Both the position numbers and the translations under genes were made by a program. 64,000 nt of DNA from NCBI GenBank assembly GCA_965262715.1, contig OZ253553.1:224001-288000 (forward strand), read 5' to 3'. The DNA comes from Bdellovibrionales bacterium. GTDB lineage: Bacteria > Bdellovibrionota > Bdellovibrionia > Bdellovibrionales > JAUICD01. This document shows, one piece after another, positions 1,535 through 54,041 of the stretch (position 1 is its first letter; the number at the start of each line of letters is the position of its first letter). Under the pieces are notes generated by a model that was not told the origin of the DNA, ran no database searches, and saw nothing but the letters and a program-made list of their open reading frames with translations.

Positions 1535-1574
1535 AGTACTACATAATGACTTATTTTGCTGAAGCCATCTTTTT
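1535..1574. repeat. 40-bp direct repeat, copy 1 (copy 2 at 1872-1911)
   Basis: AGTACTACATAATGACTTATTTTGCTGAAGCCATCTTTTT occurs identically at both positions. Confidence 0.95.
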
Positions 1575-1719
1575 TCACTAAAATGCATCTCGCCGCTGGC
1601 GACTTTCTGGTAGTCAGCTCAGGCGGTTCACATCGTCAGCAAATAGCTGACTACCTAGAAAGCCTGCTGCATTTTAGTAAACGAGATACTCCTCATTGGT
1701 TAATATCATATTAAGGAAA
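1573..1719 (+). repeat. Palindromic element family 1, copy A
   Basis: Nested stems ACTAAAATGCA/TGCATTTTAGT and CTTTCTGGTAGTCAGCT/AGCTGACTACCTAGAAAG; 3' TTAATATCATATTAAGGAAA. Confidence 0.9.
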
Positions 1720-1790
1720 TTGTCTATGTCTATATATAAACGTTTGTACCTATTGCTTCTAATTAACTTTTTGTTTTTAAAGTCGTCTTT

Positions 1791-1835
1791 TCGGGACCTG
1801 GCAAGCCGGGAGTCCGGCAATCCGGCAGTCTGGGG
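1791..1835 (+). repeat. GC-rich 8-bp-periodic repeat (family 3)
   Basis: CCTGGCAA GCCGGGAG TCCGGCAA TCCGGCAG; related to 10780-10846, 45440-45472 and 53650-53685. Confidence 0.6.
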
Positions 1836-1862
1836 TAAAAGAGAAAAAAATTATGAAAAACT

Positions 1863-2324
1863 TCAAAATTCAGTACTACATAATGACTTATTTTGCTGAA
1901 GCCATCTTTTTAAAGCGTTCTCTGTTTTTCCTTTAGGATAAATCTTTCCTCTTGGATTATTGATTAACTCTTTGTTTGTAAAATCTTCTATTAATGGGCC
2001 ATCTTCAGAATACAACAACCTTGCTCCACTCACTTTTGCTAAAGCAATAATATGTGGATCATTTGACTTAAGTTTCTCTTTTTTTAAATTGTTTATTGCT
2101 TTATTGATGTTTTCATTTTCTTTTTTTAATAATGATCCGTCGTTTATCGCCACAGATGCCCACCTTTTTAAATCGTCTTTATTAAAAAGTTCCTTTGTAA
2201 GTTTTCCACCAATAATTAAAGGTCTTTTTGGAGTGATCCAATCGAAAAATATCTTTCCAGAGGGAGGTTGCTTTTTTAGATTAAAAACCTCATGTGCTAC
2301 ATTAGCATCACAAATAGCACACAT
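1863..2324 (-). CDS. PIN-domain-like protein
   Basis: N-terminal AICDANV, SNDPHIIALA and LYSED acidic motifs; starts 4 nt after the ATPase stop. Confidence 0.7.
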   Translation of the reverse strand: MCAICDANVAHEVFNLKKQPPSGKIFFDWITPKRPLIIGGKLTKELFNKDDLKRWASVAINDGSLLKKENENINKAINNLKKEKLKSNDPHIIALAKVSGARLLYSEDGPLIEDFTNKELINNPRGKIYPKGKTENALKRWLQQNKSLCSTEF

Positions 2325-2327
2325 TAT

Positions 2328-3695
2328 TTAAATTCCTATAGAGCGATTGGTTTCTTTTTTAAAAAACTCTCGATAACATTCAGGAGCCTTTAAAACATTG
2401 CCCTCTTGATCTATCTCTATAGAATGAATGTTTACACTTGAATCTTTACGCTCAAAAAATAAAATAGACACATCTTTAGGTTTTAATTTTGTTTTTTTAT
2501 CCCTTACATCCATACGGATCCGATCCATCAAATGATCACTATGTGTCTCTATCAGGAGTTGTTTTTCCTTCTCTGCAACCTGACAAAACAGACTTCCAAG
2601 AGCTGCTTGAGCAGATGGATGCAAATGTACCTCTGGCTGTTGTAATAAAAATAAAGAAGGGGCATTTTCATATAATAGCTCTGTGATTACAGGTAAAACT
2701 TGACTGACTCCATAACCTACATCAATAAGATTTCGCTTTGGGCCTTTCTTTTTTCCAAATTTTCTAATTTGAATTTCAAAAGGGTTGCTGCCTGTTTTTC
2801 CATGTTGTTTGATAGATATCTCATCAAACAGACCAGATTGTTTTCCAAAATCTTCAAGCTGTTCTTTAAGCTTTTCCCATTTGTTAGGATACTGTGAAAA
2901 AAGCTCTGCAAGATACATAGGAATACCTTCTCCTTCAGGGTCTCTTTTTGCTCGTCGAGAATCATATGATCTTTGGGGCTTGGAACGCACAGGAGCACTG
3001 GCGTAGGGACGTTTATAATGATGAAGAAACTTGTGAGCAGTAGACATAAGCCATTTAAGCTGTTTGAAGTCTTCATCAAAGTGTTTCTTAAATGTAGATT
3101 TCCATTCAATCATTGGAAATAACATTAATAGACCAGGACTACTAAATAAACCCCGTTTAAGTAAGCCAGTAAAAAACTCCTTTAACGCTGGATCTTTATC
3201 CTTATTTTTAGTATTTTTAGGGTTATCTAACATTTTATCATCAATTTTCCGAGTGCCATTATTTGTATGAAATTTTAAACTTCCTTGTTGAAGGTTGGAT
3301 TCCAACCAAATATCTTTTTCTTTATGAGAAATATGTTCTTTTAAAGGAAGTGGGTGAACACTGTTAGGTTTTTTCTTTCCAAAGGTTAAATCCATACTCA
3401 TAATTTCTTTGTGATCACTCAGGATAAATCCTGTTTCAAAACTATCTGGTTTTTTCTCTCCCTTTTTGCCATTTTGATGATGGATTATTTCCTCAAAAGT
3501 TCCTAAATCATAAGGTTCTTCTTTAAAGTTAGGATCTCTACCATGAACAGTGTCCATAAGTATACGGAGCATAGCCATAAAAGATGTTTTGCCAGTGCTG
3601 TTTTCTCCCATAAGAAGGGTAAGAGGTGCTAAACGCACTTTCTGTACATCTCGAAAACAACGAAAGTTTTTGAGTGTGACTTCACTTATAAACAT
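2328..3695 (-). CDS. AAA_15/AAA_21-type (ABC-like) ATPase, DUF3696-like C-terminus
   Basis: LKNFRCF start, Walker A GENSTGKT, VGYGVSQVLP signature, LLQQPEVHLHP, ETHSDH. Confidence 0.85.
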   Translation of the reverse strand: MFISEVTLKNFRCFRDVQKVRLAPLTLLMGENSTGKTSFMAMLRILMDTVHGRDPNFKEEPYDLGTFEEIIHHQNGKKGEKKPDSFETGFILSDHKEIMSMDLTFGKKKPNSVHPLPLKEHISHKEKDIWLESNLQQGSLKFHTNNGTRKIDDKMLDNPKNTKNKDKDPALKEFFTGLLKRGLFSSPGLLMLFPMIEWKSTFKKHFDEDFKQLKWLMSTAHKFLHHYKRPYASAPVRSKPQRSYDSRRAKRDPEGEGIPMYLAELFSQYPNKWEKLKEQLEDFGKQSGLFDEISIKQHGKTGSNPFEIQIRKFGKKKGPKRNLIDVGYGVSQVLPVITELLYENAPSLFLLQQPEVHLHPSAQAALGSLFCQVAEKEKQLLIETHSDHLMDRIRMDVRDKKTKLKPKDVSILFFERKDSSVNIHSIEIDQEGNVLKAPECYREFFKKETNRSIGI

Positions 3696-3751
3696 GTATG
3701 TTTTACCTTTACTTTCTTCTAAAAAGATAATGATTTATAACAAATAATATC

Positions 3752-3842
3752 TGATGTTTATGGTAAAAGGCGAGTTCTTCCGCAGATGGATTGCTCAGAT
3801 AAGCAATCCATCGAGGACTACGAGCCTTTAGCATAAACATCA
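3752..3842 (+). repeat. Palindromic element family 2, copy 1
   Basis: TGATGTTTATG…CATAAACATCA outer stem; GCGAGTTCTTCCGCAG and CGAGGACTACGAG cores; apical GATGGATTGCT/AGCAATCCATC. Confidence 0.9.
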
Positions 3843-3853
3843 AGATTTCAGTT

Positions 3854-6055: not shown

Positions 6056-6136
6056 AATTTATCCTTTCAGGTTAGAAAATAAATAAAACCCCTTAGTAAA
6101 CAATCCTTTAATAAATAAAATGAATCAGCCTTTGTA

Positions 6137-6321
6137 TCACTCAAAATAAACTGGCCTCTTGAGGCGAACCTCTCGAGGCGAACCTCTCGAGGCGAGCCTC
6201 TGGCCATTTTTGGACAGTTAGCCTGAAGGTCTCTCGCCTTCAGGAAATGCTAACTGCCTCAAAAATCCGTTTATTTTGAGTAGAGAGACTTGCTTCATTG
6301 TTTAACATGATGTTAAGGAAA
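6137..6321 (+). repeat. Palindromic element family 1, copy D (three 14-bp CCTCTCGAGGCGAR units)
   Basis: ACTCAAAATAAAC/GTTTATTTTGAGT, CAGTTAGC/GCTAACTG, CTGAAGG/CCTTCAG; 3' TTAACATGATGTTAAGGAAA. Confidence 0.9.
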
Positions 6322-6381
6322 ATCTCTTTCCAACTTCTCCCTCTTCAAATCACACCAAATCTTCTCATAGCAAGCTAAGAG

Positions 6382-6472
6382 TTGGTGTTTATGCCAAAAA
6401 AAGCGAGTTCTTCCGCAGGATAGTTGCAAAAGCAATTATCCGAGGACTACGAGTTTTTGGCATAAATACCAA
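6382..6472 (+). repeat. Palindromic element family 2, copy 2
   Basis: TTGGTGTTTATGCCAAAAA…TTTTTGGCATAAATACCAA with the same core motifs as copy 1. Confidence 0.9.
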
Positions 6473-6587
6473 ATCATTGCCCCCCAAAGATTTTTCCCCT
6501 TGTTTTTCTAAAAAACAACACAACCTTTAACTCTTCCTATTCATCTCATCCACTTATACTATAACTATATCTTAATAATAACACAAT

Positions 6588-14759: not shown

Positions 14760-15002
14760 TTAGAACTCATCTCAAAATTAATTCTAATATCCACGTTTTC
14801 AAAACAATCTCTTAACTTAAGTACCATATAAAAGGACTGTTTCACTCAAAATGGACCCTTCTGGCTTTCCGTAGGGCCACTATCGTGGCTCTCGTCAAGT
14901 CTGTCCATTTTGAGTAAGAAGCCATCTTTAGTTATATTATGTTTTGTATTTTGCAATTTCGTATTATTTACTGCTATCCTGTATTTTTGAGATGGCTTCT
15001 AA
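14760..15002. mobile_element. MITE-like element (family 4) with 18-bp terminal inverted repeats, containing a family 1 variant
   Basis: TTAGAACTCATCTCAAAA … TTTTGAGATGGCTTCTAA (16/18 complementary); no ORF; related single ends at ~10900, 17270, 45543, 46617, 55917. Confidence 0.7.
14835..14943 (+). repeat. Palindromic element family 1, short variant G
   Basis: GACTGTTTCACTCAAAATGGAC…GTCCATTTTGAGTAAGAAG; inner AGGGCCAC/GTGGCTCT hairpin. Confidence 0.75.
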
Positions 15003-16766: not shown

Positions 16767-16922
16767 GACTGTTTCCCTAAAAATGCCTCTCGCCTCTGGC
16801 GACTTTCTGTCATTGCCCCCAGACGTGCTCACGCCGTCTGGCAAATAGGGCAATGCCTAGAAAGCCTGAGGCATTTTTAGGAGGGAGACTCCCTTCGTTC
16901 TTTGACATCATGTTAAGGAAAC
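16767..16922 (+). repeat. Palindromic element family 1, copy B
   Basis: CCTAAAAATGCCTC/GAGGCATTTTTAGG, CATTGCCC/GGGCAATG, CCAGACG/CGTCTGG; termini GTTTCCCTAA…TTAAGGAAAC. Confidence 0.9.
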
Positions 16923-17009
16923 TTTTTTCTTATCTTGTCCTTCTCTCTTACAAATCATAGCCTTTTTAAAGATTTTTCTTTGTTTTTCTAAAAAACAATA
17001 TACCATCTA

Positions 17010-17135
17010 CCTCTGGCGACTTTCTGGTAATGACCCTGACGGCTCTTACCGTCAGCAATTAGGTCATTACCTAGAAAGCCTGACCATTTTTAGGATGGAG
17101 ACTCTCTTCGTTCTTTGACATAATGTTAAGGGAAA
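17010..17135 (+). repeat. Palindromic element family 1, copy C (5'-truncated)
   Basis: GGTAATGACC/GGTCATTACC, CTGACGG/CCGTCAG; 3' TTGACATAATGTTAAGGGAAA. Confidence 0.9.
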
Positions 17136-32292: not shown

Positions 32293-32332
32293 AATCTAGA
32301 AGTGGCTTCAAGGAAAAAATCTTTGAAGCAAT

Positions 32333-32429
32333 AATTTGATATTTATGCCAAAAGTTCGTAGTTCTCGGATAATTGCTTTTGCAATTATCCTGCGGAAGAA
32401 CTCGCTTTTTTTGGCATAAACATCAAATT
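32333..32429 (-). repeat. Palindromic element family 2, copy 3 (homologous flanks extend ~32308-32480)
   Basis: Reverse complement matches copy 2, including the upstream linker and downstream AAAGATTTTT tail. Confidence 0.9.
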
Positions 32430-32655
32430 TTAACTTACTGTAAAGATTTAGTGTGACTTGTAAGGAGAGGAGGTGGCAATCAGAAACCTGCTGTACATTT
32501 TTAATTTCAAGACTTATCGTAAAAGGTAAATAGTCTCTTATTTATTGGTTATTTATGTACAAGGCTGTTATGAGCTGAAAATTTAGATGTCAAGATGAAA
32601 GGAGGACGGGTTTATTCTATGAAAAAGTCCTAAAAAGGTGTTTATATCAATTTAT

Positions 32656-32695: not shown

Positions 32696-33865
32696 ATGAT
32701 ACCAAGAATTGTAGAATCAGAAATTGAGAGAGGCTTAGATCGTCAAGCGGCAGTGGCTTTAATTGGTCCACGTCAAGTGGGTAAGACCACTTTAGCTTTT
32801 GAAATAGCTCGCAAACACAATGGGTTTTACTTAGATTTAGAGAGTATAGATGACCGTCACCGGTTAACCCAGCCTGTTTTATTTTTTGATAGTATGGAGG
32901 ATAGACTAGTTGTCTTGGACGAAATTCATAGAATGCCAGAATTGTTTCAAGTACTTCGAGGTGTTATTGATAAGAGGAGGCGTAAAAAGAAGGAACTAGG
33001 TCGATTTTTAATTTTAGGTTCTGCGTCTATTGATCTTTTAAATCGTTCTGGAGAAACATTAGCTGGTCGTATAGCTTATGTGGACTTATCTACACTATCA
33101 ATACTTGAAATAGAAAATACCCAAGTTGAGCGTGAAAGATTATGGTTAAGAGGTGGTTTTCCTGACAGTTATTTAGCAAAGAATGACAAGGACAGCTTTG
33201 CTCTCAGGAAGGATTTTATTAGAACTTACCTAGAAAGAGATGTAGCTTTATTTGGACCTCGTATTCCTTCTACAACTTTAGAGAGATTATGGATGATGTT
33301 AGCTCATCATCAAGGTCAGATTTTAAACGCTTCAAGATTAGCCAAAGCTTTAGAAGTTAGTACACAGTCGGTCAATCGCTATATAGATTTATTATCTGAT
33401 CTTTTGTTAATAAGACGTCTACCTTCTTATCGGGCAAATGTGAAGAAAAGGTTGGTTAAATCACCAAAAGTTTATATAAGAGATAGTGGATTGGTACATG
33501 CTCTTCTTGGACTTCAAACCTTTGAACAACTCTCTGGACATCCTATTATTGGTTTTAGTTGGGAAGGTTTTGTTTTAGAGATATTGTTGTCTGTGTTACC
33601 ATATCCTGCCTCAGCTTTTTTTTATAGAACAGCAGCTGGAGCAGAGATAGATATGGTTATTGATCGTGGAAGTGGTAATTTATGGGCCATTGAAATTAAA
33701 AGAAGTCTTTCTGGTCATGTTGAAAGAGGATTTTATCAGGCTTGTGCAGACCTGGATCCAGAAAGGGCTTTTGTTGTTTATGCTGGTGAGGATTCCTATC
33801 CTGTTTCTGATAATGTTCAAGCTATCAGTATATATGAAATGGCAAAACTAATACAGAAGCTTTGA
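32696..33865 (+). CDS. AAA_14 ATPase with DUF4143 and PD-(D/E)xK-like C-terminus
   Basis: GPRQVGKTT, LDEIH, LGSAS, ETLAGR, RGGFP, KRLVKSPKVY.RDSG, EID…IEIK. Confidence 0.92.
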   Translation: MIPRIVESEIERGLDRQAAVALIGPRQVGKTTLAFEIARKHNGFYLDLESIDDRHRLTQPVLFFDSMEDRLVVLDEIHRMPELFQVLRGVIDKRRRKKKELGRFLILGSASIDLLNRSGETLAGRIAYVDLSTLSILEIENTQVERERLWLRGGFPDSYLAKNDKDSFALRKDFIRTYLERDVALFGPRIPSTTLERLWMMLAHHQGQILNASRLAKALEVSTQSVNRYIDLLSDLLLIRRLPSYRANVKKRLVKSPKVYIRDSGLVHALLGLQTFEQLSGHPIIGFSWEGFVLEILLSVLPYPASAFFYRTAAGAEIDMVIDRGSGNLWAIEIKRSLSGHVERGFYQACADLDPERAFVVYAGEDSYPVSDNVQAISIYEMAKLIQKL

Positions 33866-33893
33866 TTTGATGTTTTAAGCCAATCCTTGAACA

Positions 33894-33968
33894 AGCTGAC
33901 TACCCAAAAGTGGTCAGAGGCTCGCCTCGAGAGGCTCGCCTCGAGAGGCCAGTTTATTTTTAGTGAAC
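33894..33968 (-). repeat. Palindromic element family 1, copy F (half element, two 14-bp units)
   Basis: Reverse complement GTTCACTAAAAATAAACTGG(CCTCTCGAGGCGAG)2CCTCTGACCACTTTTGGGTAGTCAGCT. Confidence 0.85.
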
Positions 33969-35071
33969 TAGGCAGCTTTATTGAATTTACTACGAGGAAA
34001 CGGAATACGATTTGATTCGATTTCTTCCATATAAGTTGGCAAAATCCCTGTAGGTTCTATTTGTCCTTTTAACTGGCCATCAGCTGCTTTTGTCAGTTTT
34101 TTAATTTCATAGATAGTTCTAAGGTTGTAGAAGCCTTTATGATCATAGTTGATCACTTCAGCTATACTTTGAATGCGACGTCTGCCATCAGAAAAACGAG
34201 ATATTTGCACAATAAGATCAATAGCTGATCCGATTTGTTGATTTAATGCTTTTTCACTAATTTTAGCATCACCTCCCATGGCCAGAGCTTCTAGTCGTAC
34301 CAGCGAGTCTTCAGGGGAGTTAGAATGAATAGTTCCAAAACATCCTTTATGTCCTGTATTCATTGCGCTGATAAGCTCTAGAGCTTCTGCGCCTCTGACT
34401 TCTCCTACGATGATACGATCGGGTCTTAGTCTCAGGCTACTTTTAAGGAGGTTTCTGATAGTCACTTCTCCGTTACCTTGTTCGTCTGCCATTTTTGTTT
34501 CAAAAAAGACCACATGTTCATATTCGATAGAGAGTTCAGAAGCATCTTCAATCACAATAATTCTTTGTCCTTTAGGGATACGTCCTGCCAGAAGTCCAAG
34601 AAGAGTGGTTTTACCTGATCCTGTACCTCCACTGATGAGGCAGTTCTTACCTAAAAAGACAGAAAGATCGAGAAACTGAGCTGCATCTGGTGTAATGGTT
34701 TGAAAACGAATATAGTCTTTTAAGGTCATTTGCACTTTGGAAGTCTTTCGAATGGCGATTGTTGTGCCGTTTCTTGCACAGGGAGGGATAACTGCATGGA
34801 TACGATAGTTTCTAGGAGGGGGCAATCTAGCATCTAATGTAGGATTTTCATGGTCAATCACCCGACCCACACTTTGCGCTATGTTATTGATAGCAGCTAT
34901 GAGATTATCTTCATTTATAAACTGATTAGGGACCTTATGAATTTTTCCTTTACTTTCTACAAATATCTCTTTTGGGCCATTGATCATCACCTCAGATATA
35001 CTTTCATCTGCTAAGAGATCGGCAATAGGTTCTAAAAAATTATCTATGGAACTGCTAAAAACATCACTCAT
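33968..35071 (-). CDS. cpaF: CpaF/TadA-family pilus assembly ATPase
   Basis: EVMING, DARLP, IRK, SGGTGSGKTT, IEDASEL, LRLRPDRIIVGEVRG, AMNTGH. Confidence 0.92.
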   Translation of the reverse strand: MSDVFSSSIDNFLEPIADLLADESISEVMINGPKEIFVESKGKIHKVPNQFINEDNLIAAINNIAQSVGRVIDHENPTLDARLPPPRNYRIHAVIPPCARNGTTIAIRKTSKVQMTLKDYIRFQTITPDAAQFLDLSVFLGKNCLISGGTGSGKTTLLGLLAGRIPKGQRIIVIEDASELSIEYEHVVFFETKMADEQGNGEVTIRNLLKSSLRLRPDRIIVGEVRGAEALELISAMNTGHKGCFGTIHSNSPEDSLVRLEALAMGGDAKISEKALNQQIGSAIDLIVQISRFSDGRRRIQSIAEVINYDHKGFYNLRTIYEIKKLTKAADGQLKGQIEPTGILPTYMEEIESNRIPFPRSKFNKAA

Positions 35072-37344: not shown

Positions 37345-37350
37345 TATTTT

Positions 37351-39081
37351 ATGTATATCAAAGAGACTAAAAAAGCCAATGGTAAGATATCCATACGGAT
37401 CATGAAGTCTATCCGTAGAGGTGAGAAAGTGACTCATCATACAGTAAGTAGTCTTGGTTGCTGTTTTGAGAATCAATTGGATTTTTATAAAAAGAATGCA
37501 AAGACCTTATTAGATCGTTTAGAAAAAGAAGAAGCAGAAAAAATGTCAATACTTCTTCCAGGAATGAAAGAATATTGTGACAGCATAGAACCGGTTTCTA
37601 AACAACCAAGGTCAAGAAAAAAGAGTGTTAAAGTTAAAAAGAAAGCATCTTCTCATTTTAAAATCATACTTTCATCAGAAGCAAAAGAGCGATGTCGAGT
37701 GATTAGTGGCATACAGAGTGTTTTTGGAACAATATATAATCAATTAGATTTTAATAATCTTATAAAAGGTAAGAGTCAAAAAACGAAGCAATATAATGAG
37801 TTATTAAAGCTGTGTGTTTTATCTCGGATAGCTCAACCAGAGTCTAAGCGAAAGACAGTAGATACATTAGGATTAGATTATAACAAAGAGATTTCTTTAG
37901 ATCAGGTTTATCGGATGATGGATAAACTTCATACTCGTATACCTGAATTAAAAAAGCAAATTTCAGATCATACATTAAGTCTTTTCAATCAAGAGGTGGA
38001 TGTTTTATTTTTTGATGTAACGACATTATACTTTGAAAGTTTGACAAAAGATGATCTGAAGGACTTTGGATTTAGTAAAGATTGTAAGTTCAAAGAAGTT
38101 CAAGTGGTTTTAGCTTTAATAACAAATTCAGAAGGTCATCCATTAATTTATCAGTTATTTCCTGGAAATACGAGTGAAGGCAGCACTCTTATTCATGTGA
38201 TTCAAGATTTAAAGAAACACTTTAGTGTTAAGAGAGTTATCTTAGTAGCGGATCGAGCTATGTTTACAGATAAGAATTTAAGTTTTATGGAGAAAGAGAA
38301 TATCCAATATATAGTTTCAGCCAAGCTCAAGCAATTTTCAAGAGATAAGAAAGCAGAGATTTTATCAGCTTCTAAGAAAGGTGAAGATGTCAGTATATTC
38401 AATGAATCACAAAGAATGAAAGAGTTAGATCATAATGGTCGCAGATTATTAGTGAGTTATTCTATCATGAGAGCTAAGAAGGATAAAGCAGATAGAGATA
38501 GACTCATTGATCGATTAATGAAGAAAGCAATAGATGATAAGATTTCCACTAAGTCTCTTATTTCTAATTATGGAACTAAGAAGTACATAAAGATAGAAGA
38601 TAGCAAAGCGACTATCAATAGGAATAAGATTAAAGAGGATTCTCACTGGGATGGTCTCTACGGAGTTATAACTAATATTAAAGATCAAAGTATGCAGAGT
38701 TTATTTACTCGCTATAGAGGCCTCTGGAAGATAGAAGAGGCATTTAGAGTGAATAAACATACATTGAGAATGAGACCGATATATCATTGGAAGAAAAGAA
38801 GGATAGAGTCTCATATAGCGATATGTTTTTTAGCCTATGCTTTATCGTATCATATCAAGCACAGACTTAAGACAAAAAATATTAATTTAAGTATTCAAAA
38901 GATTAAAGAGATCTTAAAGAGGGATCAGTATTCAATTATAGAAGACCCAAAGACTCATCAATTATATCAATTAGCATCTTCATCAACAAAAACTTTAGAA
39001 GCTATATACAAGATTTTTGAGCTTAAAAGAAAGACAGGACTTACAAAAATAACAGAAAACCCGCAAACCCTTAATACATAA
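37351..39081 (+). CDS. IS1634-family DDE transposase
   Basis: FFDVTTLYFES, GFSKD, FPGN, VADRAM, YRGLWKIEEAFR..K…RPIYHW..RIESHIAICFLAY. Confidence 0.95.
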   Translation: MYIKETKKANGKISIRIMKSIRRGEKVTHHTVSSLGCCFENQLDFYKKNAKTLLDRLEKEEAEKMSILLPGMKEYCDSIEPVSKQPRSRKKSVKVKKKASSHFKIILSSEAKERCRVISGIQSVFGTIYNQLDFNNLIKGKSQKTKQYNELLKLCVLSRIAQPESKRKTVDTLGLDYNKEISLDQVYRMMDKLHTRIPELKKQISDHTLSLFNQEVDVLFFDVTTLYFESLTKDDLKDFGFSKDCKFKEVQVVLALITNSEGHPLIYQLFPGNTSEGSTLIHVIQDLKKHFSVKRVILVADRAMFTDKNLSFMEKENIQYIVSAKLKQFSRDKKAEILSASKKGEDVSIFNESQRMKELDHNGRRLLVSYSIMRAKKDKADRDRLIDRLMKKAIDDKISTKSLISNYGTKKYIKIEDSKATINRNKIKEDSHWDGLYGVITNIKDQSMQSLFTRYRGLWKIEEAFRVNKHTLRMRPIYHWKKRRIESHIAICFLAYALSYHIKHRLKTKNINLSIQKIKEILKRDQYSIIEDPKTHQLYQLASSSTKTLEAIYKIFELKRKTGLTKITENPQTLNT

Positions 39082-40006: not shown

Positions 40007-43000
40007 CTATATTGGTTTCCAGCAACCAGTAGTTTGTAGCTGACATGTTGTACCAGTGTTATCCTCGTTACAATGAGATTCAGAGTCATAAATACACTCA
40101 TCTGGTGACCAACATCCAGCCAGTTTAACACAAGTCCGGCCAGGATTAGCCCGCAGACAAGCTGCTAGCATTTCAAACCTGTTTAGACCGGCACATTGTG
40201 CTGCCCCACACAAATAACTTGGGTTACAACCACCCATTTCGCCAAGACAGTCCTGATCTGAACAGCACTCAACGCTTTCTGTAGAAAAACAAGATACACT
40301 TTGTGAATCACTTTCGCATGTCCACTCATACTCTCGAGTAGGTTCCCAGCCATGGACAAAACACCTATTATTAACCAAGGAAGGAGTCCCTACCTTACAA
40401 CGATCTCTTCCGTAAGGTTGACTACCACACTCTGGAGCAGGAGGAGGGCAATGACTGTTGTCAGGATAAGTATCACCATCACAACATTTTGTAGTAGAAT
40501 CACAACACCCTGCTGGTGGTGGTTGAGGGCACGAGCCACAATTACATTTATTATGGAGGGGACAATCTACAGTCTTTTTTGCATCTGTACTTTGACATTT
40601 CCATTGAGCCTCTATCTGTGTACTAGTAGGTTGAAAAAGATTACCTTCTGTACATGTGCCTTGTTGCGTTGTGCCATGAACATAACCTCCACACACTGCC
40701 TTTGATGGCGGTGGAGGACAGTGAGTAGGGTTGTCTGCATGGGTCTGACCAGGACAGCATCTTACAGCTGGGTTACATCCGCAAGTGGGACTATCTTTTC
40801 CAGTACATCCATTACTAGTTGTGCCTTTACATATCCATGTTCCAGGATTTGGAGGAGGGTCTGGGTCTGGATTTCCAGCAGCACATCCGGTATCATTGCA
40901 CACTCCATCTATAGGAGGAAGGGCAGGAGGGGAAGGAGGGCAACCTTGTGGTGTGATGCCGCAAGTTCCACTCTTTCCACCACCACCTATACCCAAACAT
41001 TCCCACTGGGTAGTATTAATGTCTTGTTTAGTTCCCACAGCGCATCCAGTATCGCTGCACTTTCCATCTCTTGGACAAGTTCCAGTGTTACTTCCTGTAC
41101 CTATGCCTTTACATGTCCAGGATCCAGTAGAACTAAGAGATAAGTTAGGATTAGCAGGCTTTTGAGTTCCTGCAGAGCATCCAGATCCAGTCGGACTGCA
41201 CTTTCCATTAATATTAAGTGGGCAAGGAGTCTGAGGAGCATCATCTCCTCCATTTTCACCTTTACATATCCATGTTCCATCATTATGTTTTATTTCCGTT
41301 CCCTCACTGCATCCTGTAGGGTTGCATATTGCATTTACTTTTGTCACATCTGGTTCACAAGTTGCAGAATCTCCTCCATTTTTACCTTTACATGTCCGTG
41401 TTTTAGTAAGATCTGGAGGATCTGGGTCTGGATCTCCTTTATCACATCCAGTCGGACTGCACTCTCCATTCACTGGACACTTATCGTTGCTTCCTCCTAA
41501 ATCTGAGTGCTTATCACTATCACAACATTTCACAGCTGAGTCACATGTGCCGCAAACTCCGCTATCATCTCCTTTATTTTCACCTTTACATATCCATGTT
41601 ACATCAGGAGGTGTTGCATTTTCTTTATCTCCGTATTTGCAACCATCATTAGGAGTATCGCACTCTCCATTCACTGGACAGTTATCGTTGCTTCCTCCTA
41701 AGTCTGAGTGCTTATCAGTGTCACAACATTCTTTACTTGGGTCACATGCAGACGGTGGTCTTCCACAACATTCTCCTCCATTTTCAGTAACTTCCTGAGG
41801 TTCTTTGTTATCTATAAGAGGAATCTTAATCCAGTCATCAGAACCCCAAAGCTGCTGCGTATTGAGGCTTGCACAAGTACTTGCAGTATGTGTCCAATTC
41901 GATGTATCTGATGCACCATCACCTGTGTATCCTTGTGCTTCTGCTAAACTTTGACAAGTCGGTCTGCAAACTCCATCATCATTGATCTCTTGAACATGAC
42001 ATGTCCCTGAACTTGCACAGTTAGTAGCACAGAATTGCCCTGTGCAATCTCCTCCTTCTGATACTAGACAACAAGCCTTTCCATTTGCCTTGACACAATC
42101 AGATGGACAATTCGAGTTACTGGGGAAAGTATCACCTGTGGATGGACAACATTCCACAGTTGAATCACAAGGAGGTGGTGTCACTCCTAATTCTAGTGCA
42201 CATGAAGCTGGCCTAGCATCACACCGCTCCGAAGATAAATTCCCTCCACCAACACCTAGATCAGGACAACCTCCACTGGGGACACCACATGCTCCACTAA
42301 AACTCACAGTATGAGTTCTTGGTGTAGGAGTATATTGATATACATCACAGGCATGGCACCTATGAGGATTACAGTTATAAGGATTACACTGAACTGATAC
42401 AGTCTGACAATTTAGCCCATTCAGGTCACATTGTTGCTGTGAACAAGTATTGTAACAAGTATCGTAACAAGTATGTGAACATGGTGTTCTGCAACTTTGA
42501 GCACAACTGACTGTACAAGAACCACTATCACACCCTATTGTATAAGTTCCAGAGGTATCACAAGTGAGATCAGTTGAACCAGTAGGTTGACATGTTCCAC
42601 TTTTTGAGTAACTACATGAATTTCCTTGCCTTCTCCCTACACAAGCAGATGTTGGCCCTGTCTCACTACAAGGAGATGTCGAATTACAAGGAAGGTCATA
42701 ATGGCAATCATACAAGCCTAGTGGTGGACAACCGGATGCTGAATCCTGTTGAGTCCTACCTCCCCCCTTGGGATTAGAGCAAGAGTTTGGGTATGAGTTT
42801 GTTTCACACTCATCTGTTCCAACAGTCCCACATTCATTCCTAAACCCATCACAGCAGATCAATTGAGGTTCACATTGCACATTTGTACATTTGCATGATG
42901 GGCCTGTACACGTAGGCTTGTGAGGAACATAAACACTCCACTCTGTGTCTTTACAAACTCCGGATCCAGTTCCACCACAAACATGGTGATATTTAGTGGA

Positions 43001-45013
43001 AAATTGGATGGGATTGCAGCCATCATCATGATAAGGCTTGCTCCCCTCTAACTTACAATCCAACTGACCACCATCACCATCTTTTCTAGCTCTACTGCCC
43101 ATAAAATTATCATTACAATCTACGGAATAGTGCTTTGGAAGTTCCCCTGCAGTATCTTTTGCAGGAAGCACTGTTTTTATAAGATAAGCATCCTTATCTG
43201 TACTTTTGAGCCACTCAGGGTCATTTGGAAAGTCATGAGTCTCAAATTTACTGGGTAAATCTGTATCCCATACTAAGTCTTTTGTATTTGTACCTCCGCA
43301 TGTGTCCTTGGGAGTGAAGGTGATCGTTTGTCTGCCTTGCTGAACTCCACTCAGCTCTCCCCCGCAATCTGAAGTTAAAGTTGGACTTGTTGCAGCTGTA
43401 CCGTTTCCATCTTCTCTTTCCCCTTCAAGCTCACACTTTTCTAGATTATGAGTGAATTGATCTTCTATACTTGCTGAAAACTCAACTGTGTCTTGATTGC
43501 ACTGAACCCATTTGTTTGTTGAATCTCCAGGTTTTATCCAATTTGTGAAAAGACCATCGTAATCACGGCCTCCTCCACCATCATCAGGAGTACCTACTGC
43601 ATCATTAGTAATACTCCTACTTGATATAGTAGGTCTAATAGCATCAATGTAAAATCTGGACACCATCTTCTTTCTTAAATTGCGACCTGCCATAGAAAAT
43701 TCGCCAACATTCAATTCATATCTTCTATCTGTTTTCATATCACTAAATTCCATCTCAAGAACTTGAGGGTTTGTAAGTTGCGATGCGTATTTCCAATCCT
43801 GGTCTGGACCCGTAGGTTGAATATGATGACATCTCTGCCAACGACCTAACTGAGGATTACAACCATTGTAACTTGCATCTCCATAAGATCTGCAATAAGA
43901 GTTCATCTGACATAAAATGACTGTGCCTATCTGCTGGCTTTCTTGTATACCATTAAAATTGACTGTGACTGTTATATCATCATAACCAGCACCATCAGTG
44001 TCACAAGAGGTCAACAATAAGGTTGAATTAGTTAAAAGGTCTTGGCCAGCTCCAGTAGTCAAGCCTACCATAGCTGCATGAATAGCTTTTGACAGCGTTG
44101 CCGTTATTGGCTTTATCTGATGAGCAAACCTATGAGAAGCATTACATCTATACCCTTGATCGTTACGATTGTATTTCAACATGATTGTAATCTCAAAACC
44201 AATTTCTGGATCACCTAATACATTTAAGGCTGGGGATAATTGCGCTCCTTGAGGATTATGAAAACGAGGACGTGTTAAAATCTTACTGGGGGGAGATGCT
44301 ATTGGCTTTTCTGTTTGTAAGTTTATTGGAGATATTTTTATATAAAATTTTAGGTTCTCTAAATCAAATTGATCTCCATACTTCTCTAATATAGAAAACA
44401 TGTTACCACTATTCATGCCATTAACTGTGTACATTTTACCATCACCACTGTTCTCTGTAAAAAATCCATTATCTGAATTGTAAAGATATTGAAGAGCATT
44501 CACAGAATTCACAATGAGTGTTGACGTAGATATGTCAAAAGGATAAGTAGCTCCAATAAGAGGCTTACCTGTATTTGATTGGGGGTCTCCTGTAGGAGGA
44601 GTGATGCCAAGGCTTTTATATAATTCATTGTACATCTCTGGAGGAAAAGAAAGCTCACTACCACTGCCAACATCCTTAACAACTCCACCATCATCTTTAA
44701 TAAACAATGGTTCATACATAAATATAAAATGATCAGTGCCTGTATGGTGAATTTTATATCCATAAAGACGCGCTCCTAAAGACACAACACTTTCTAAGGC
44801 TTGTTTTGCAATAGTGTCACACTGTGTAACTTGAGAGGAAGAGCTCATAGTGACTTTTGTTTGAGTAAAAAAATAACTGGTCCCTACTGCTACAGTCGCT
44901 AAAAACACGGCTATTAAAATAATCTCCACTAACATCATCCCCTGCTGGCCACGATGAGTGAAACGCTTTGTCCCTAAACTAAGATAAGAAGAAAAGTTAC
45001 ATGTTTTAAACAT
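40007..45013 (-). CDS. Giant type IV prepilin-like protein with Cys-rich repeat C-terminal half (putative adhesin)
   Basis: QQG/MMLVEIILIAVFLATVAVG class III signal (G-1, E+5); repeated VNGxC…GC..G…W.CKG.NGG modules; likely start MFKTC at 45013 (ORF track 45058). Confidence 0.8.
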   Translation of the reverse strand: MFKTCNFSSYLSLGTKRFTHRGQQGMMLVEIILIAVFLATVAVGTSYFFTQTKVTMSSSSQVTQCDTIAKQALESVVSLGARLYGYKIHHTGTDHFIFMYEPLFIKDDGGVVKDVGSGSELSFPPEMYNELYKSLGITPPTGDPQSNTGKPLIGATYPFDISTSTLIVNSVNALQYLYNSDNGFFTENSGDGKMYTVNGMNSGNMFSILEKYGDQFDLENLKFYIKISPINLQTEKPIASPPSKILTRPRFHNPQGAQLSPALNVLGDPEIGFEITIMLKYNRNDQGYRCNASHRFAHQIKPITATLSKAIHAAMVGLTTGAGQDLLTNSTLLLTSCDTDGAGYDDITVTVNFNGIQESQQIGTVILCQMNSYCRSYGDASYNGCNPQLGRWQRCHHIQPTGPDQDWKYASQLTNPQVLEMEFSDMKTDRRYELNVGEFSMAGRNLRKKMVSRFYIDAIRPTISSRSITNDAVGTPDDGGGGRDYDGLFTNWIKPGDSTNKWVQCNQDTVEFSASIEDQFTHNLEKCELEGEREDGNGTAATSPTLTSDCGGELSGVQQGRQTITFTPKDTCGGTNTKDLVWDTDLPSKFETHDFPNDPEWLKSTDKDAYLIKTVLPAKDTAGELPKHYSVDCNDNFMGSRARKDGDGGQLDCKLEGSKPYHDDGCNPIQFSTKYHHVCGGTGSGVCKDTEWSVYVPHKPTCTGPSCKCTNVQCEPQLICCDGFRNECGTVGTDECETNSYPNSCSNPKGGGRTQQDSASGCPPLGLYDCHYDLPCNSTSPCSETGPTSACVGRRQGNSCSYSKSGTCQPTGSTDLTCDTSGTYTIGCDSGSCTVSCAQSCRTPCSHTCYDTCYNTCSQQQCDLNGLNCQTVSVQCNPYNCNPHRCHACDVYQYTPTPRTHTVSFSGACGVPSGGCPDLGVGGGNLSSERCDARPASCALELGVTPPPCDSTVECCPSTGDTFPSNSNCPSDCVKANGKACCLVSEGGDCTGQFCATNCASSGTCHVQEINDDGVCRPTCQSLAEAQGYTGDGASDTSNWTHTASTCASLNTQQLWGSDDWIKIPLIDNKEPQEVTENGGECCGRPPSACDPSKECCDTDKHSDLGGSNDNCPVNGECDTPNDGCKYGDKENATPPDVTWICKGENKGDDSGVCGTCDSAVKCCDSDKHSDLGGSNDKCPVNGECSPTGCDKGDPDPDPPDLTKTRTCKGKNGGDSATCEPDVTKVNAICNPTGCSEGTEIKHNDGTWICKGENGGDDAPQTPCPLNINGKCSPTGSGCSAGTQKPANPNLSLSSTGSWTCKGIGTGSNTGTCPRDGKCSDTGCAVGTKQDINTTQWECLGIGGGGKSGTCGITPQGCPPSPPALPPIDGVCNDTGCAAGNPDPDPPPNPGTWICKGTTSNGCTGKDSPTCGCNPAVRCCPGQTHADNPTHCPPPPSKAVCGGYVHGTTQQGTCTEGNLFQPTSTQIEAQWKCQSTDAKKTVDCPLHNKCNCGSCPQPPPAGCCDSTTKCCDGDTYPDNSHCPPPAPECGSQPYGRDRCKVGTPSLVNNRCFVHGWEPTREYEWTCESDSQSVSCFSTESVECCSDQDCLGEMGGCNPSYLCGAAQCAGLNRFEMLAACLRANPGRTCVKLAGCWSPDECIYDSESHCNEDNTGTTCQLQTTGCWKPI

Positions 45014-45653
45014 TTGTAGAACCCAAAGATAATTTAAGTTTAACAAAAAAAATAACATTAAAAAAAATAAGGTATTATTTGGAGTTATGAATAAAAGTTC
45101 TGTACAAACACCTTAGTGTATATGATTTATCTCACATCTTATTGTAACTTAAGCTGTGATAAAAAGAAACTATTAAAATTATCAATTACTGTATCAATAA
45201 GATATATATAGGTTAAAAAAATATTTCAAATTAAAGAAAGGTGTTTCAAATAAAGAAAATGTTATTCAAAATGTTTCAAATTGATTGAATAATTATGACT
45301 CATAAATAGAACATCTGGTATTCCAGCAGACAAGATAATCAGGTAACGGTATTAGGTAACAGTCATAAAATTAAGCTATTAACTGGCAAGTACTTTTTAC
45401 ATCATTATAGAAGGTTAACATTACTGATAACAGGTGTAGTTTGCCTGCTTCCCTGTTTGCCCGACTGCCGAATTAAAATAAAAACTTAATAAAATGTAAT
45501 TTGTAAATTCGATATGCTATCTTGCAAAAAGTAATAACTCATAGAAGGGCTCTTAAAAAATAAGTTTTGTATTTTAAAATAAGTATAACTCGACTTCATA
45601 CAAAATCAACATTCTGACAAAAGAAGCAAGTTGGTAACAGCCATAGAATTGCT

Positions 45654-48076: not shown

Positions 48077-48085
48077 AGTGTCTAG

Positions 48086-48115: not shown

Positions 48116-48434
48116 GTCTAAAAAATAAGACTGTCCCATCTATAAATCCTACTTAAGGGATCATAAAAAACTCTCATATTTATTTTATTAATAAAGGTTT
48201 TTTATACTATTACTTATTGCTATTTTAGTGAGAGTCATAAAGGTAGTTACAGAGGGTTTTAGGTAGAAAAGGTATTTTAAGGCACAATGCATCTTTCACT
48301 TGCATTTATAAAGTAAATATCTTAAATTATTATTATATATGGTATTATTATATATGGGTAGAAAATAGGTACCTGTTATTATATTAGAGATTATTTAAAA
48401 AATAATAAAAAACAAAAATAACATGAGGTAGGAG

Positions 48435-48677
48435 ATGGCACGTATAACTGTTGAAGATTGTTTAGACAACGTCACTAATCGTTTTGATTTGGTGATTTTA
48501 GTTACTAGAAGAGCAAAGTCCTTATTTAGAGGTGCAGAACCCACAGTACAAACTAAAGGTGAAAACAAGCAAGTGGTCACTGCATTAAGAGAGGTAGCTG
48601 CAGGTTACGTGAAGTTTAAATATGATGAGTCGTTAGGCACGCCTATTGAGCAAATTGAACGCGACCTTAATCGCTGA
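48435..48677 (+). CDS. rpoZ: RNA polymerase omega subunit
   Basis: MARITVEDCL..V.NRFDLV, NKQVVTALREVAAG. Confidence 0.97.
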   Translation: MARITVEDCLDNVTNRFDLVILVTRRAKSLFRGAEPTVQTKGENKQVVTALREVAAGYVKFKYDESLGTPIEQIERDLNR

Positions 48678-48802
48678 GGGGATGAACGTAAATAAAAACA
48701 GATATTTATGGTAAGTGGCACATATAAACGCCTATAAATTGTGTGAAATTTTTATAAAGAGTCTTAGTCATTTAACAATAAAAAACTGTTCAAAGGAGAC
48801 AG

Positions 48803-51058: not shown

Positions 51059-51125
51059 TATCTTTATCTCAATGATCTCTATTCAATAAGCAAAAAAATT
51101 GAATATCTCTACAAGAGATATTAAT

Positions 51126-51593
51126 ATGAATACAAGGATTGCTCCTCGGACAGCTAACTTTATTAAAGATCAACTTAGAAAAGCTGCTGCATTCTATAGA
51201 GATGAAGCCGAACACAGTAGAGAGATTGGTGACTTAGGAATGTCGAATTGGTATGCTAATAGAGGCTTACAAATAGCAGAATTAGAAAGACAACTTGGTT
51301 CACGGATAACATTTGGAGATGTAGATGAGATTGGAACCTATATTCAAACAATTGCAGAAGATCATGAATACGATGTTATTGATGAAGAACAACGAGGGAC
51401 GTTAAGACGAGAGATATATGGAGGTGAAAAGCTTATTGGAAAGCATCATGCTTCAAACAAATTGGGGCTAGGATCAGGGTATTCTAGATGTAGAGACTGG
51501 ATTGAGGGAGATGTTGACAGAATTATTGCCAGATACCGTGAAATTGGAACTGTTAGACCTTTTAATAGAAAAGGTACAAGTAAACTTCGATGA
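51126..51593 (+). CDS. Hypothetical protein
   Basis: Open frame of ~155 aa with protein-like composition; no recognised motif; ATG at 51126 preferred to TTG at 51099. Confidence 0.6.
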   Translation: MNTRIAPRTANFIKDQLRKAAAFYRDEAEHSREIGDLGMSNWYANRGLQIAELERQLGSRITFGDVDEIGTYIQTIAEDHEYDVIDEEQRGTLRREIYGGEKLIGKHHASNKLGLGSGYSRCRDWIEGDVDRIIARYREIGTVRPFNRKGTSKLR

Positions 51594-51735
51594 TATCTAC
51601 TCCCTCATAATAAGGCGCAACCTTTCTCGTCTCTGTATCAACTCATCCCTACGCTGTTCATTATATCTTATGATATCTCTAAGATTTTTTATAAGGGTTT
51701 ATGAGTGCTATCCTTTAAAAGGTCTTCTTGTATTT

Positions 51736-52914
51736 TTATAAGTGCTTTTTGATCTCTTCCATCATTTGAAGTGTTCCCATGACTGTTATTTTATCTTTAT
51801 ATGGAAACCTATCATTACCTCCATAAATTACAAATTTCTTATCAGCTTTTATATCTTCACATGCACTATGATATCCTCTAGGTATTTTAAAGTCTTCTGC
51901 GCTTTTTTTGATCTCAATAGCCCATGTTTCTTGTTTTATTTTTAAGACTAAATCGATTTCTGCACCAGCTACAGTTCTGTAAAAAGAATAATCTATGTTA
52001 TTAGGAAGAATAGAGAGTATATTATTTATAACAAACCCTTCCCAGCTAGTTCCAATAATTGGATGTGAAAGCAGATGATCATATGTTTCAATATTTAATA
52101 AGCTATGTAAAATACCAGTGTCATTAATATAAATACGATACGATTTGATAAGTCGCTTTTTTACATTCACATATAAAGGACAAAGTTTTTTTATTAAGAA
52201 AAGCTCAGATAATATATCTATATAGCGTTGAACTGTTTTACTATCTATATGTAAATTTTTTGCTAATTGTGAAGCGTTTAATAGGCTTCCATTATAATGC
52301 GCTAACATTTCTAAAAGTCTTTTAAATTGATCTACTGGAATACGAAAACCAAATTGAGGAATGTCACGTTCTAAATAGGTTGTCATGAAATCTTTTCTCC
52401 ACTGAAGGCTTATACTTTCGTTAGGACTTAAGTAACTTTTAGGAAATCCACCTTTTAACCATAAATTGATAATGTCAGTGTGTGAACTTGGTTGAGTTTC
52501 TAATAAATTAAATCCATGCATGTTTATATAGCTGATTCTACCGGCTAAGCTCTCTGATGATTGACGTATGAGTTTTTTAGATGCTGAACCTAAAATAAGA
52601 TACCTACCTGATAGCATGCTTTGATCAATAAGTACCCTCAATACTGAAAATAACTCTGGCTTTTTTTGAACCTCGTCGATAATAACCAGTTTATCTGTAT
52701 GTTGAGATAAAAAAGAATATGGATCGCTCAGTTTTAACAAATCCTTAGGTGATTCTAAATCAAGATAAATGCTTTTATGTTTCTTTGCTATAAATTCCTT
52801 AGCTAAAGTGCTTTTACCAACTTGCCTTGGGCCTAAAATAGCAACGGCAGGATTGTTTTGCAGTCTGCCTTCAACTTCATCATAAATAAAGCGATGTAAT
52901 ATCTTAACTTGCAT
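51736..52914 (-). CDS. AAA_14 ATPase with DUF4143 (paralog of 32696-33865)
   Basis: GPRQVGKST, IDEVQ, LGSAS, ESLAGR, KGGFP, KRLIKS, EID…IEIK. Confidence 0.92.
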   Translation of the reverse strand: MQVKILHRFIYDEVEGRLQNNPAVAILGPRQVGKSTLAKEFIAKKHKSIYLDLESPKDLLKLSDPYSFLSQHTDKLVIIDEVQKKPELFSVLRVLIDQSMLSGRYLILGSASKKLIRQSSESLAGRISYINMHGFNLLETQPSSHTDIINLWLKGGFPKSYLSPNESISLQWRKDFMTTYLERDIPQFGFRIPVDQFKRLLEMLAHYNGSLLNASQLAKNLHIDSKTVQRYIDILSELFLIKKLCPLYVNVKKRLIKSYRIYINDTGILHSLLNIETYDHLLSHPIIGTSWEGFVINNILSILPNNIDYSFYRTVAGAEIDLVLKIKQETWAIEIKKSAEDFKIPRGYHSACEDIKADKKFVIYGGNDRFPYKDKITVMGTLQMMEEIKKHL

Positions 52915-52939
52915 GGTTTGACTTCCTTATCAATATCTA

Positions 52940-52976
52940 CCTTGTATTTTCGTATATTATCTCCAAGTTTACAAGG
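52940..52976. promoter_or_regulatory. 37-bp inverted repeat upstream of the second AAA-DUF4143 gene
   Basis: CCTTGTA-N23-TACAAGG; an extra half-site CCTTGTATTTTCG at ~52993. Confidence 0.7.
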
Positions 52977-53178
52977 TTAAACTGAAGAATTACCTTGTAT
53001 TTTCGGAAAAATAAGTGAAAATCTATAGAAGTGTTTATACATTTTACGCATCTCTCTGCGAGACAGGTTGTTTGTCTTTACTTTAGACTCAAGTCAGGTA
53101 GATTTTTATTAACAGTTAAAATAAGCTTTTAAGAATCATAAAAAATGATTTAAAATCTTTGTATCAAAGGAGAATAGA

Positions 53179-53601
53179 TTGGTTTATTTTCAGCAGGTAC
53201 AGTCAATTCAGTATATTTTGTTTTGTTTACTAATTGCTTTTTTAATGGCGAGCTGTACTGTCAATCTTCCTACTGAGAAGCCTGTTACTGATAAACAAGC
53301 TATTCAAAAAGTTGTGGAAGAAAATATTAAAGAGTTAAGAGTTTGTTATGAAAGACTTGCTCAAAGAGATCCAAATGTCTCTGGGCAGGTGGAGTTTAAA
53401 TGGACTATTCAGGTCGATGGTCTTGTAGAAAATGTTAGAGTCGTAAAATCACAAATTAAAGATGAAGACACATTAGAATGTATGATAGCGTCCTTAGCAA
53501 CATGGAAATTTCCAAAGCCCTCAAGAGGTGTAGTATTAGATATAGATTACCCATTTGTATTTGTAATATCTAAGAAGAAATCATCGCCAAGTATCAAATA
53601 G
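53179..53601 (+). CDS. Lipoprotein with AgmX/PglI (TonB-C-like) domain
   Basis: Lipobox MASC; LRVCYE…P.VSGQV…W.I..DG.V…ECM…WKFPKP…YPFVF. Confidence 0.8.
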   Translation: MVYFQQVQSIQYILFCLLIAFLMASCTVNLPTEKPVTDKQAIQKVVEENIKELRVCYERLAQRDPNVSGQVEFKWTIQVDGLVENVRVVKSQIKDEDTLECMIASLATWKFPKPSRGVVLDIDYPFVFVISKKKSSPSIK

Positions 53602-53657
53602 TATGGCAAATATAACAGTTTGGTTCATAACTACTTAAGCTCTCTTTTCTCCGGGAT

Positions 53658-53864
53658 ATGGCAGCCTACGCAATCCGGCATACCGTACATGGAATCAACC
53701 TTGCAATTAATTTTTATCGTAACTCTAGGAAATTAAGTTTAAGAGAACCTCTTAAAAACCAGTTCCATAGAGCTTCTCTAAGCATTGTACGTAGGTTGGC
53801 TGAAAAAAGTGCTAAACCAACTGCTAAAGAACGTAGAAAATTCTATAGGATTAGTCTTGGATAA
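53658..53864 (+). pseudogene. Truncated four-helix-bundle (IVS/bAvd-like) protein
   Basis: LAINFY…LKNQFHRASLSIV..LAE.SAK.T.KERRKFYRISLG then a premature stop; preceded by the family 3 GC repeat. Confidence 0.7.
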
Positions 53865-53877
53865 GATATAACTTAAA

Positions 53878-54041
53878 TAGTTTCCCTAACATGATGTAAG
53901 AAATGAAGAATATCTTCTTACTCAAAATAAATGGATTTTCTAGGCAATGACCTATTTGCTGAGGGCATTAGCCGTCAGGGTCATTGTCAGAAAGCAACCA
54001 GAGGCTTGCCTCGAGAGGTTGGTTTATTTTGAGTGAAACTA
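53878..54041 (-). repeat. Palindromic element family 1, copy E
   Basis: Reverse complement has ACTCAAAATAAA/TTTATTTTGAGT, CAATGACC/GGTCATTG, one 14-bp unit; termini TAGTTTCCCT…AGTGAAACTA. Confidence 0.9.

Follow-up and report, generated by a model that had tools for sequence, protein, structure and literature searches.

A 64,000-nucleotide stretch of DNA from a Bdellovibrionales bacterium (contig OZ253553.1, positions 224,001 to 288,000; hereafter the window) holds seven copies of a dispersed, apparently non-coding and non-autonomous repeat of about 150 nt. The repeat family is undescribed, active now and confined to one genus among the genomes searched, and it is mechanistically unusual even if its copying proves not to be RNA-templated. 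Several lines of comparative evidence support selection on a single-stranded fold shaped as a three-way junction. From this fold, the polarity of the copies, their junction statistics, a polymorphic insertion and the physical association of the repeat with a gene encoding a four-helix-bundle protein, we tentatively suggest, with a little less than even confidence, that the element spreads by primer-capture, template-switching copying of the folded single strand, in the manner of a short interspersed nuclear element (SINE), with the Avd-like four-helix-bundle protein as likely chaperone.

The source genome of the window (G000) is a single contig of 2.94 Mb and the second carrier genome (G001) a single contig that is 90% complete; marker-based completeness of the two lies at 90-93%, and extrachromosomal replicons were seen in neither. 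The original prediction, made on the window, described a family of seven copies. The copies are real, and the scope is far wider: a profile built on them gave 453 matches in G000, and a rebuilt profile gave 484 non-overlapping matches in 237 clusters, occupying about 2.4% of the genome, with only 3 of the 237 clusters lying inside an open reading frame (ORF). Median identity between nearest-neighbour copies is only 89.5%; G001 holds two identical copies 547 kb apart. A BLAST search with one copy matched 3 of the 301 genomes of the order, only two candidates being scored per genome, and a covariance model based on 65 copies from G000, G001 and sister-species contigs matched the same 3 among 141 genomes searched. 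The third of these, G004, was rejected as a carrier: its element copies lie only on three small contigs (C1, C4 and C11; loci L117-L120) that are syntenic to G000 and mostly 83-95% identical to it, and are therefore probably misbinned sister-species DNA. With its carrier status dropped, a first impression of perfect co-occurrence between the element and the four-helix-bundle gene was withdrawn. Exact-pattern scans of viral and metagenome collections returned no match, the same pattern fitting 68 places in G000. Comparison of the window with Rfam gave no family match at the gathering score and, below threshold, only generic hairpin noise on three loci; a literature search, with subscription papers and supplements outside its scope, retrieved no account of the repeat family or of a structured repeat linked to the four-helix-bundle gene.

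On its plus strand, defined as the strand read in the original prediction, the element starts with five variable nucleotides followed by a 13-bp outer helix, P1. P2 is a 5-bp covarying hairpin with a TCT loop, and P3 a 16-bp helix with one extrahelical T that leads through a 6-nt bulge to the apical helix P4; the 3' part consists of a 3-nt junction strand and a 40-nt tail ending in ATGTTAAGGAAA, the tail palindrome being invariant. The motif GCCTCTGG had been described as a conserved bulge; since it is instead the P2 hairpin, the fold becomes a three-way junction. The short terminal inverted repeats proposed at the same time did not hold up, as a C follows GGAAA in only 17% of 140 copies, CTGTT makes up the opening five bases in only 66 of 209, and the element ends are not complementary beyond TTTC/GAAA.

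From the 225 distinct full copies, 140 non-identical ones of 140-160 nt were aligned; the 18 column pairs ranking highest for covariation all fall inside the helices P1-P4. Among the 65 copies of the covariance model, 96.8% of cells pair and 31 of the 41 pairs show two-sided changes, neither value being reached in any of 500 shuffles. On a tree of the 140 copies, same-branch changes in paired columns number 199 against a null mean of 22 and a null maximum of 66, so that covariation in a larger alignment is significant both by shuffling and when the tree is taken into account. Folding z scores range from -5.9 to -8.4 on either strand for two window copies and one from elsewhere in the genome. 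The two arms of a given helix are tightly coupled (normalised mutual information 0.76-0.91, including the P1 arms 85 nt apart) and coupling between different helices is weak (0.30-0.57); orthologous sites in a sister species may carry other helix variants within the same flanks. Taken together, these three features indicate that helices are exchanged as modules with their matched arms kept. Pairing, shuffle, tree and arm-coupling results all back the earlier claim that a single-stranded fold is under selection. A search for adenine mutagenesis of the kind seen in diversity-generating retroelements (DGRs) found no excess of variation in A or T columns.

All seven window copies exist and align, six being matched by the covariance model (E 4e-24 to 3e-6) and the truncated copy 6 by a DNA profile hidden Markov model (HMM); five are full or nearly full. 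Copy 2 (6133..6321, +) is a full element with three additional CCTCTCGAGG-type mini-hairpins ahead of the P2 helix, and copy 4 (16769..16921, +) is full as well, with copy 5 (16980..17135, +) as its head-to-tail neighbour, the 5' arm of whose P1 has decayed. Copy 3 (14837..14916, +) retains only P1 around a foreign interior, and is enclosed in a separate carrier resembling a MITE (a miniature transposable element with inverted repeats) at 14761..15001 (+), with ends TAGAAC..TCAAAA and TTTTGAGA..TTCTA; the end motifs of this carrier occur 106 times in the genome, and some carriers hold copies of the main element. Copy 6 (33892..33970, -) consists of a left end only, cut off in P3 and fused to part of a second repeat family. 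Copies 1 and 7, discussed below, have remnants of the four-helix-bundle gene next to them; the original prediction had overlooked these remnants as well as the junction signatures.

Copy 1 (1575..1719, +) is a full three-way-junction element forming the left end of a 297-bp polymorphic insertion. It is preceded by the left copy of a perfect 40-bp target duplication (1535..1574, +) and followed by a read-through tail (1720..1871, +), after which comes the right copy of the duplication (1872..1911, +). The tail comprises a MITE-derived piece to about 1764, short repeats of the GGCAATCC type at about 1790-1833, and the leader and first six codons of the four-helix-bundle gene, with the ATG at 1853. 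Public runs X1 and X2 (one sample), X5 (another study) and X4 (labelled as the same sample as X1) were used to genotype this site, which is filled in X4 and empty in the other three. Contigs of X1, X2 and X5 fuse 1534 to 1872 with 40 shared letters at the joint and show zero depth on the unique tail at 1771-1862; the X4 contig spans 1668-1901, and X4 is the only run to cover the tail. An assembler may walk through a 40-bp repeat, yet the lack of tail depth argues for a true empty allele, and the identity of the two 40-bp copies makes a recent gain the likelier direction. The first bases of copy 1 come from a T run of the target, and the insert resolves into exact pieces of several sister copies; its left junction has 10 nt in common with MITE-borne sister copies, so that, for this single event, microhomology repair is a further possible explanation. 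Sister species about 90% identical show sites gained, lost and replaced, and one insertion of the four-helix-bundle gene, absent from a sister species, carries element fragments.

The junctions are polarised. Neighbouring copies in G000 lie head-to-tail in 225 of 247 pairs, and a second start motif stands ahead of 14% of 268 full copies as against 1.5% of random sites. The distinct partial starts number 36. In 26 of them the P2 loop is the end point and the length 25-27 nt, and 18 of this subset show at least four differences from the next copy, which excludes local slippage as their origin. In G001, where counts refer to 50 fetched loci picked because they hold element copies or the four-helix-bundle gene, 39 chains comprise 57 partials (29 of 26-29 nt and 11 of 18-19 nt), the longest chain having five. 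The first bases of the element vary and derive from the target in the empty/filled pairs inspected, and in 94% of 193 junctions a C or T stands directly before the start. Left flanks are mostly unrelated, 145 of 313 being singletons. A same-strand stop codon lies within 30 nt of the left end in 29 of 86 cases, compared with 13 of 98 for the right end (p=0.0014).

Two further features distinguish the left end. In 5 of the 38 tRNA genes it is no more than 2 nt away from the CCA end (expected 0.15), and in 2 more it falls at the 5' end (expected 0.15); G001 yielded one CCA-end junction by a strict pattern that recovered only 2 of the 5 in G000. A general targeting of hairpin feet was considered and rejected: such feet accounted for 5 of 193 junctions, four of them at tRNAs, and for 18 of 3000 controls. 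Direct duplications abut the left end at 13 of 155 sites, representing about ten independent events; spliced controls gave 0 of 309 and a mirror test 5 of 155. The duplications range in length from 13 bp to more than 40 bp and the tails from 0 to 151 nt, and the right ends have no motif in common. In a separate observation (G000:C1:948000-948420 compared with L063), a copy flanked by tRNA-Pro is duplicated 11 kb away, the duplicate starting at the complement of a tRNA-like CCA end and halting 10 nt into the next tRNA fragment.

As to which strand folds, plus-strand mismatches in the core are more often A.C than G.T (160:58 cells; 89:44 events, p=1e-4; 28:13 in a G001-dominated set), and for 125 of 140 copies the better fold is that of the minus strand. 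Tolerance of wobble pairs may underlie this, or else deamination of a minus strand that lies exposed. Where a copy stands between co-directional genes, their sense is more often that of its minus strand (69:47, or 74:38 with another gene filter). An apparent lagging-strand bias (122:73 by local skew) vanished once transcription was controlled (46:37 and 115:101).

Self-clustering of ORFs revealed that multicopy small proteins adjoin element copies. The protein belongs to the TIGR02436 four-helix bundles (60 bits against a cut-off of 24 with the family HMM), and its predicted model, with a pLDDT of 95.9, has 2GSC as best PDB match; it is closest to Xcc0516 and BT_0352 (TM up to 0.88), the match to Avd being weak (TM 0.65, E 0.87). 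PMC10053308 describes the TIGR02436 family as Avd-like. There are 19 family matches in G000 and 14 in G001, and ten intact genes of G000 show dN/dS values of about 0.1, with a range of 0.05-0.24 where computable, most being flanked by 7-8-nt repeats. Matches to the family lie within 300 bp of an element copy in 21 of 37 cases, compared with 302 of 2020 other genes, and at 12 of 14 G001 loci the minus strand of every adjacent copy is in the sense of the gene. Copies split the gene near codon 66 in both genomes. In the window, a broken gene spanning codons of about 10-64 (53697..53862, +) is split by copy 7 (53881..54039, -), a full element lying antisense in the gene near codon 66, and a decayed 3' piece of the same gene follows at about 54041-54070.

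Relatives retrieved through this gene are metagenome-assembled genomes titled Bdellovibrionales. Other Bdellovibrionota loci (L038, L040, L041, L090, L093, L094 and L101) hold diverged head-to-head pairs of four-helix-bundle genes with 7-8-nt repeat flanks, most arranged around a palindromic spacer. Two four-helix-bundle genes in G004 (L033:895-1251 and L034:714-1070) carry another kind of insert, about 66 nt in length, that splits them near codon 51.

Enzymes that might move the repeat were sought in both carriers. G000 encodes a group II intron reverse transcriptase (RT), a partial second one and a retron-type RT, and no element copy lies within 2 kb of the group II intron RT genes. Neither RAYT (NF047646) nor the IS110 recombinase (PF01548) had a match in either carrier; a motif resembling RAYT in G000 was discarded as the protein looks like Maf by eye, and RAYT-like genes are present in the non-carrier G002. 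With PF01797, a single IS200 TnpA was found in G000, its nearest partial copy about 1.8 kb off, and none in G001; the earlier suggestion of a substrate for an HUH transposase or RAYT is not supported. The Y2 transposase search returned no match, its control being equally silent, and is uninformative. Matches to Rpn/YhgA-like proteins (PF04754) number 16-19 each in G000, G001 and G003; since Rpn/YhgA and Cas1 are shared by the two carriers with the non-carrier G003, neither is implicated or excluded. The ends of 10 multicopy insertion sequence (IS) groups in G000 are unlike those of the element, and resident IS1634-type elements, which make long duplications, have unrelated ends. Among the RT loci themselves, L012 and L014 hold the group II intron RT gene and its second copy with an internal deletion, and L013:1282-3054 (-) encodes a 590-aa fusion of a retron St85-type effector domain with an RT, near a copy-bearing tRNA-Asp gene.

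Target-derived first bases, repeated re-initiation at one end on different templates, read-through at the other and variable duplications form the pattern of primer extension with template jumping, and it is on this pattern that the copying model is built; the template strand, its nature as RNA or DNA, the role of the protein and the enzyme are parts that we infer. The primer would be a free 3' end that base-pairs over a few positions with the short 3' overhang left single-stranded by the folded minus strand, probably RNA, and some polymerase would then copy the element from it. Stalling at helix boundaries and re-priming on the 3' end of another copy would generate chains of aborted starts. 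Read-through past the conserved right end would enter the sequence preceding the element in the template and pick up short repeats, four-helix-bundle gene or tRNA pieces; a return to the target, sometimes upstream, could leave the 13-40 bp duplications. The multicopy Avd-like protein would be the likely chaperone, its gene probably moving in the same way, and later conversion between copies may swap whole helices while selection keeps their arms matched. An RNA template is suggested by the precision at tRNA ends, by co-orientation with the gene and by the binding of Avd to a segment of non-coding RNA that determines where processive copying takes place (PMC6182149).

Several observations weigh against this copying model. 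No RT family had a match in the G001 contig, 90% complete as it is, and AEP primase was found in neither G000 nor G001. The strand evidence is split: the bias between G-U and A-C that the original prediction proposed to exploit is present, but its direction in the core favours the minus strand and in the tail hairpin the plus strand (G.T 246 versus A.C 39). Wobble-type cells make up only about 4% of the core, which is low for an RNA. The missing remainder of a partial lies behind 6 of 25 copies with a partial and 12 of 161 without (p=0.02), so that some partials, though not most, are nested insertions into the P2 loop, and the continuation of the aborted copy is present in only 4 of 47 P2-loop restarts. 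About 92% of sites lack a duplication, several of those with one lie in tandem arrays or are paralogous, and tRNA ends are also hairpin feet in single-stranded DNA. For copy 1, seemingly new, the assembly offers no full-length donor of more than about 91% identity. In G000 the four-helix-bundle gene occurs on either strand of the nearest copy, the minus strand being in the gene sense in 14 cases and opposite in 7. Finally, G004 proper, G021, G025 and G026 have 7-19 matches to the gene with no element found, which means that the gene is not sufficient.

The most explicit version of the copying model is a bacterial SINE whose RNA 3' overhang would be captured by free 3' ends, including the CCA of tRNA, and extended by a host or unrecognised polymerase with the help of the Avd-like chaperone, no canonical RT or transposase taking part; all these specifications together seem to us rather unlikely. 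A REPIN-like single-stranded DNA moved by a nick-and-join enzyme, of the HUH type or other, is an unlikely explanation too. The enzyme would cut at pyrimidine-T steps, join the left end of the element to severed target strands, the P2 loop of other copies among them, and would itself be lost, divergent or on an unassembled replicon. Nearly strict Watson-Crick pairing, the C or T before the start, nested insertions that leave a remainder and the majority of sites without duplication speak for such an enzyme. Against it, no RAYT, Y1 or IS110 was found in G001, and RAYT-like genes occur in a non-carrier; the first bases are variable and target-derived, replichore bias disappears with transcription controlled, and the long variable duplications are left without explanation. 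A retroposon served in trans by an ordinary RT of the group II intron or retron type, now in G000 and lost or extrachromosomal in G001, would account for junctions resembling target-primed copying with template jumps and could call on the RTs of G000. We find it improbable given that G001, which has identical dispersed copies, has no RT match, and that the 2 kb on either side of the group II intron RT genes are free of copies.

The spread could instead be passive, old copies having been carried in MITEs or IS elements, tandemly amplified and shuffled by gene conversion, with long duplications left by resident IS1634-type transposases or ordinary repair. Copies residing in the MITE-like element, from which subfamily copy 1 comes, the long duplications made here by IS1634-type elements, the helix variants at orthologous sister-species sites, the tight coupling of arms relative to that of different helices and the low nearest-neighbour identity are all in line with passenger spread. 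This explanation appears quite unlikely nevertheless, as the element ends resemble no resident multicopy IS end inspected, nearly half of the left flanks are singletons, and the tRNA-end precision and start chains from different variants are not explained. Least probable of all, and in our view very doubtful, is a host cis-regulatory element, be it a terminator, an RNA stabiliser or a protein-binding site, with spread as a by-product of repair: the almost exclusively intergenic clusters, the proximity of the left end to gene ends and the invariant tail palindrome would suit one, yet gain, loss and replacement of sites are seen both between species about 90% identical and within one population, and copies disrupt four-helix-bundle genes.

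By the features tested, the repeat is not a REPIN, a MITE, an IS110 derivative or a DGR, nor, judged by its end sequences, an attC site. Like REPINs (PMC3116915), it is a non-coding, intergenic, high-copy folded repeat found in clusters and tandem arrays and inserted into existing copies. Unlike them, it forms one asymmetric three-way junction and not an inverted REP doublet, its neighbours are overwhelmingly direct, its carriers lack a RAYT match, and it displays aborted starts, tRNA-end junctions and variable long duplications. Bacterial MITEs and Rickettsia palindromic elements are lineage-restricted, non-autonomous folded repeats of about 150 bp. The element shares these properties and differs in having no terminal inverted repeats, fixed duplication, matching IS ends or in-frame insertion into genes. 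Integron attC sites carry conserved GTT crossover boxes at both ends; here the first bases are not constant and the right end has no box to match. The 29 ORFs with a copy on either side are for the most part unrelated or housekeeping genes, two tyrosine recombinases of unassigned type being present, and lend no support to the attC or integrase substrate once envisaged for the repeat.

Eukaryotic SINEs and non-long-terminal-repeat target-primed copying leave one fixed end, variable read-through, variable-length duplications and template jumps. The repeat works most like a SINE, with one fixed end, a variable other end and, at a minority of sites, variable-length duplications; it fails the RT test in G001, no partner long interspersed nuclear element or RT tracks with it, and duplications occur at only about 8% of sites. 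DGRs combine Avd, an RT and a structured RNA, and the protein associated here comes from a family reported to resemble Avd (PMC10053308). There is no RT beside the element, no pair of template repeat and variable repeat was seen, variation is not adenine-specific, and the RTs of G000 are of the group II intron and retron types. The protein is also of the same family as the TIGR02436 intervening-sequence protein of 23S rRNA (PMC4990558); here the gene is multicopy, conserved and flanked by 7-8-nt repeats, and in contrast to that case lies outside rRNA and is tied to a 150-nt structured repeat.

Other features of the window deserve mention. A second structured repeat family of the form TTGATGTTTTA...TCTTCCGCAGAG...TAAAACATCAA occurs at 3734-3844, about 6373-6470, where it follows copy 2 after a pyrimidine-rich spacer, and 32325-32469; of its 50 BLAST matches, 42 are no further than 200 bp from the main element, and in the IS30-like elements inspected the transposase gene is followed by a copy. 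The DDE transposase at 37351-39081 (+), with CCTGA..TCAGG ends, is presumably IS1634-like, and related groups in the genome leave long variable duplications. An ORF of 1683 aa at 40007-45058 (-) has no Pfam match and a close paralogue about 30 kb off. ATPase genes of the AAA_14/DUF4143 and AAA_15/AAA_21 types lie at 32696-33865, 51736-52914, 2328-3695 and 59463-60593, two of them close to copies of the element.

Where the mover of a dispersed repeat in bacteria is known, as for REPINs and MITEs, it is a transposase, and the present family fits no mover tested. It supplies hundreds of natural junctions, and offers a concrete candidate substrate for TIGR02436, a very widespread family resembling the retroelement chaperone Avd. 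Should its copying prove to be RNA-templated without a canonical RT, it would represent a new route for RNA into bacterial DNA; if the bacterial SINE interpretation were true, it would also explain the movement of repeat-flanked four-helix-bundle genes in many phyla.

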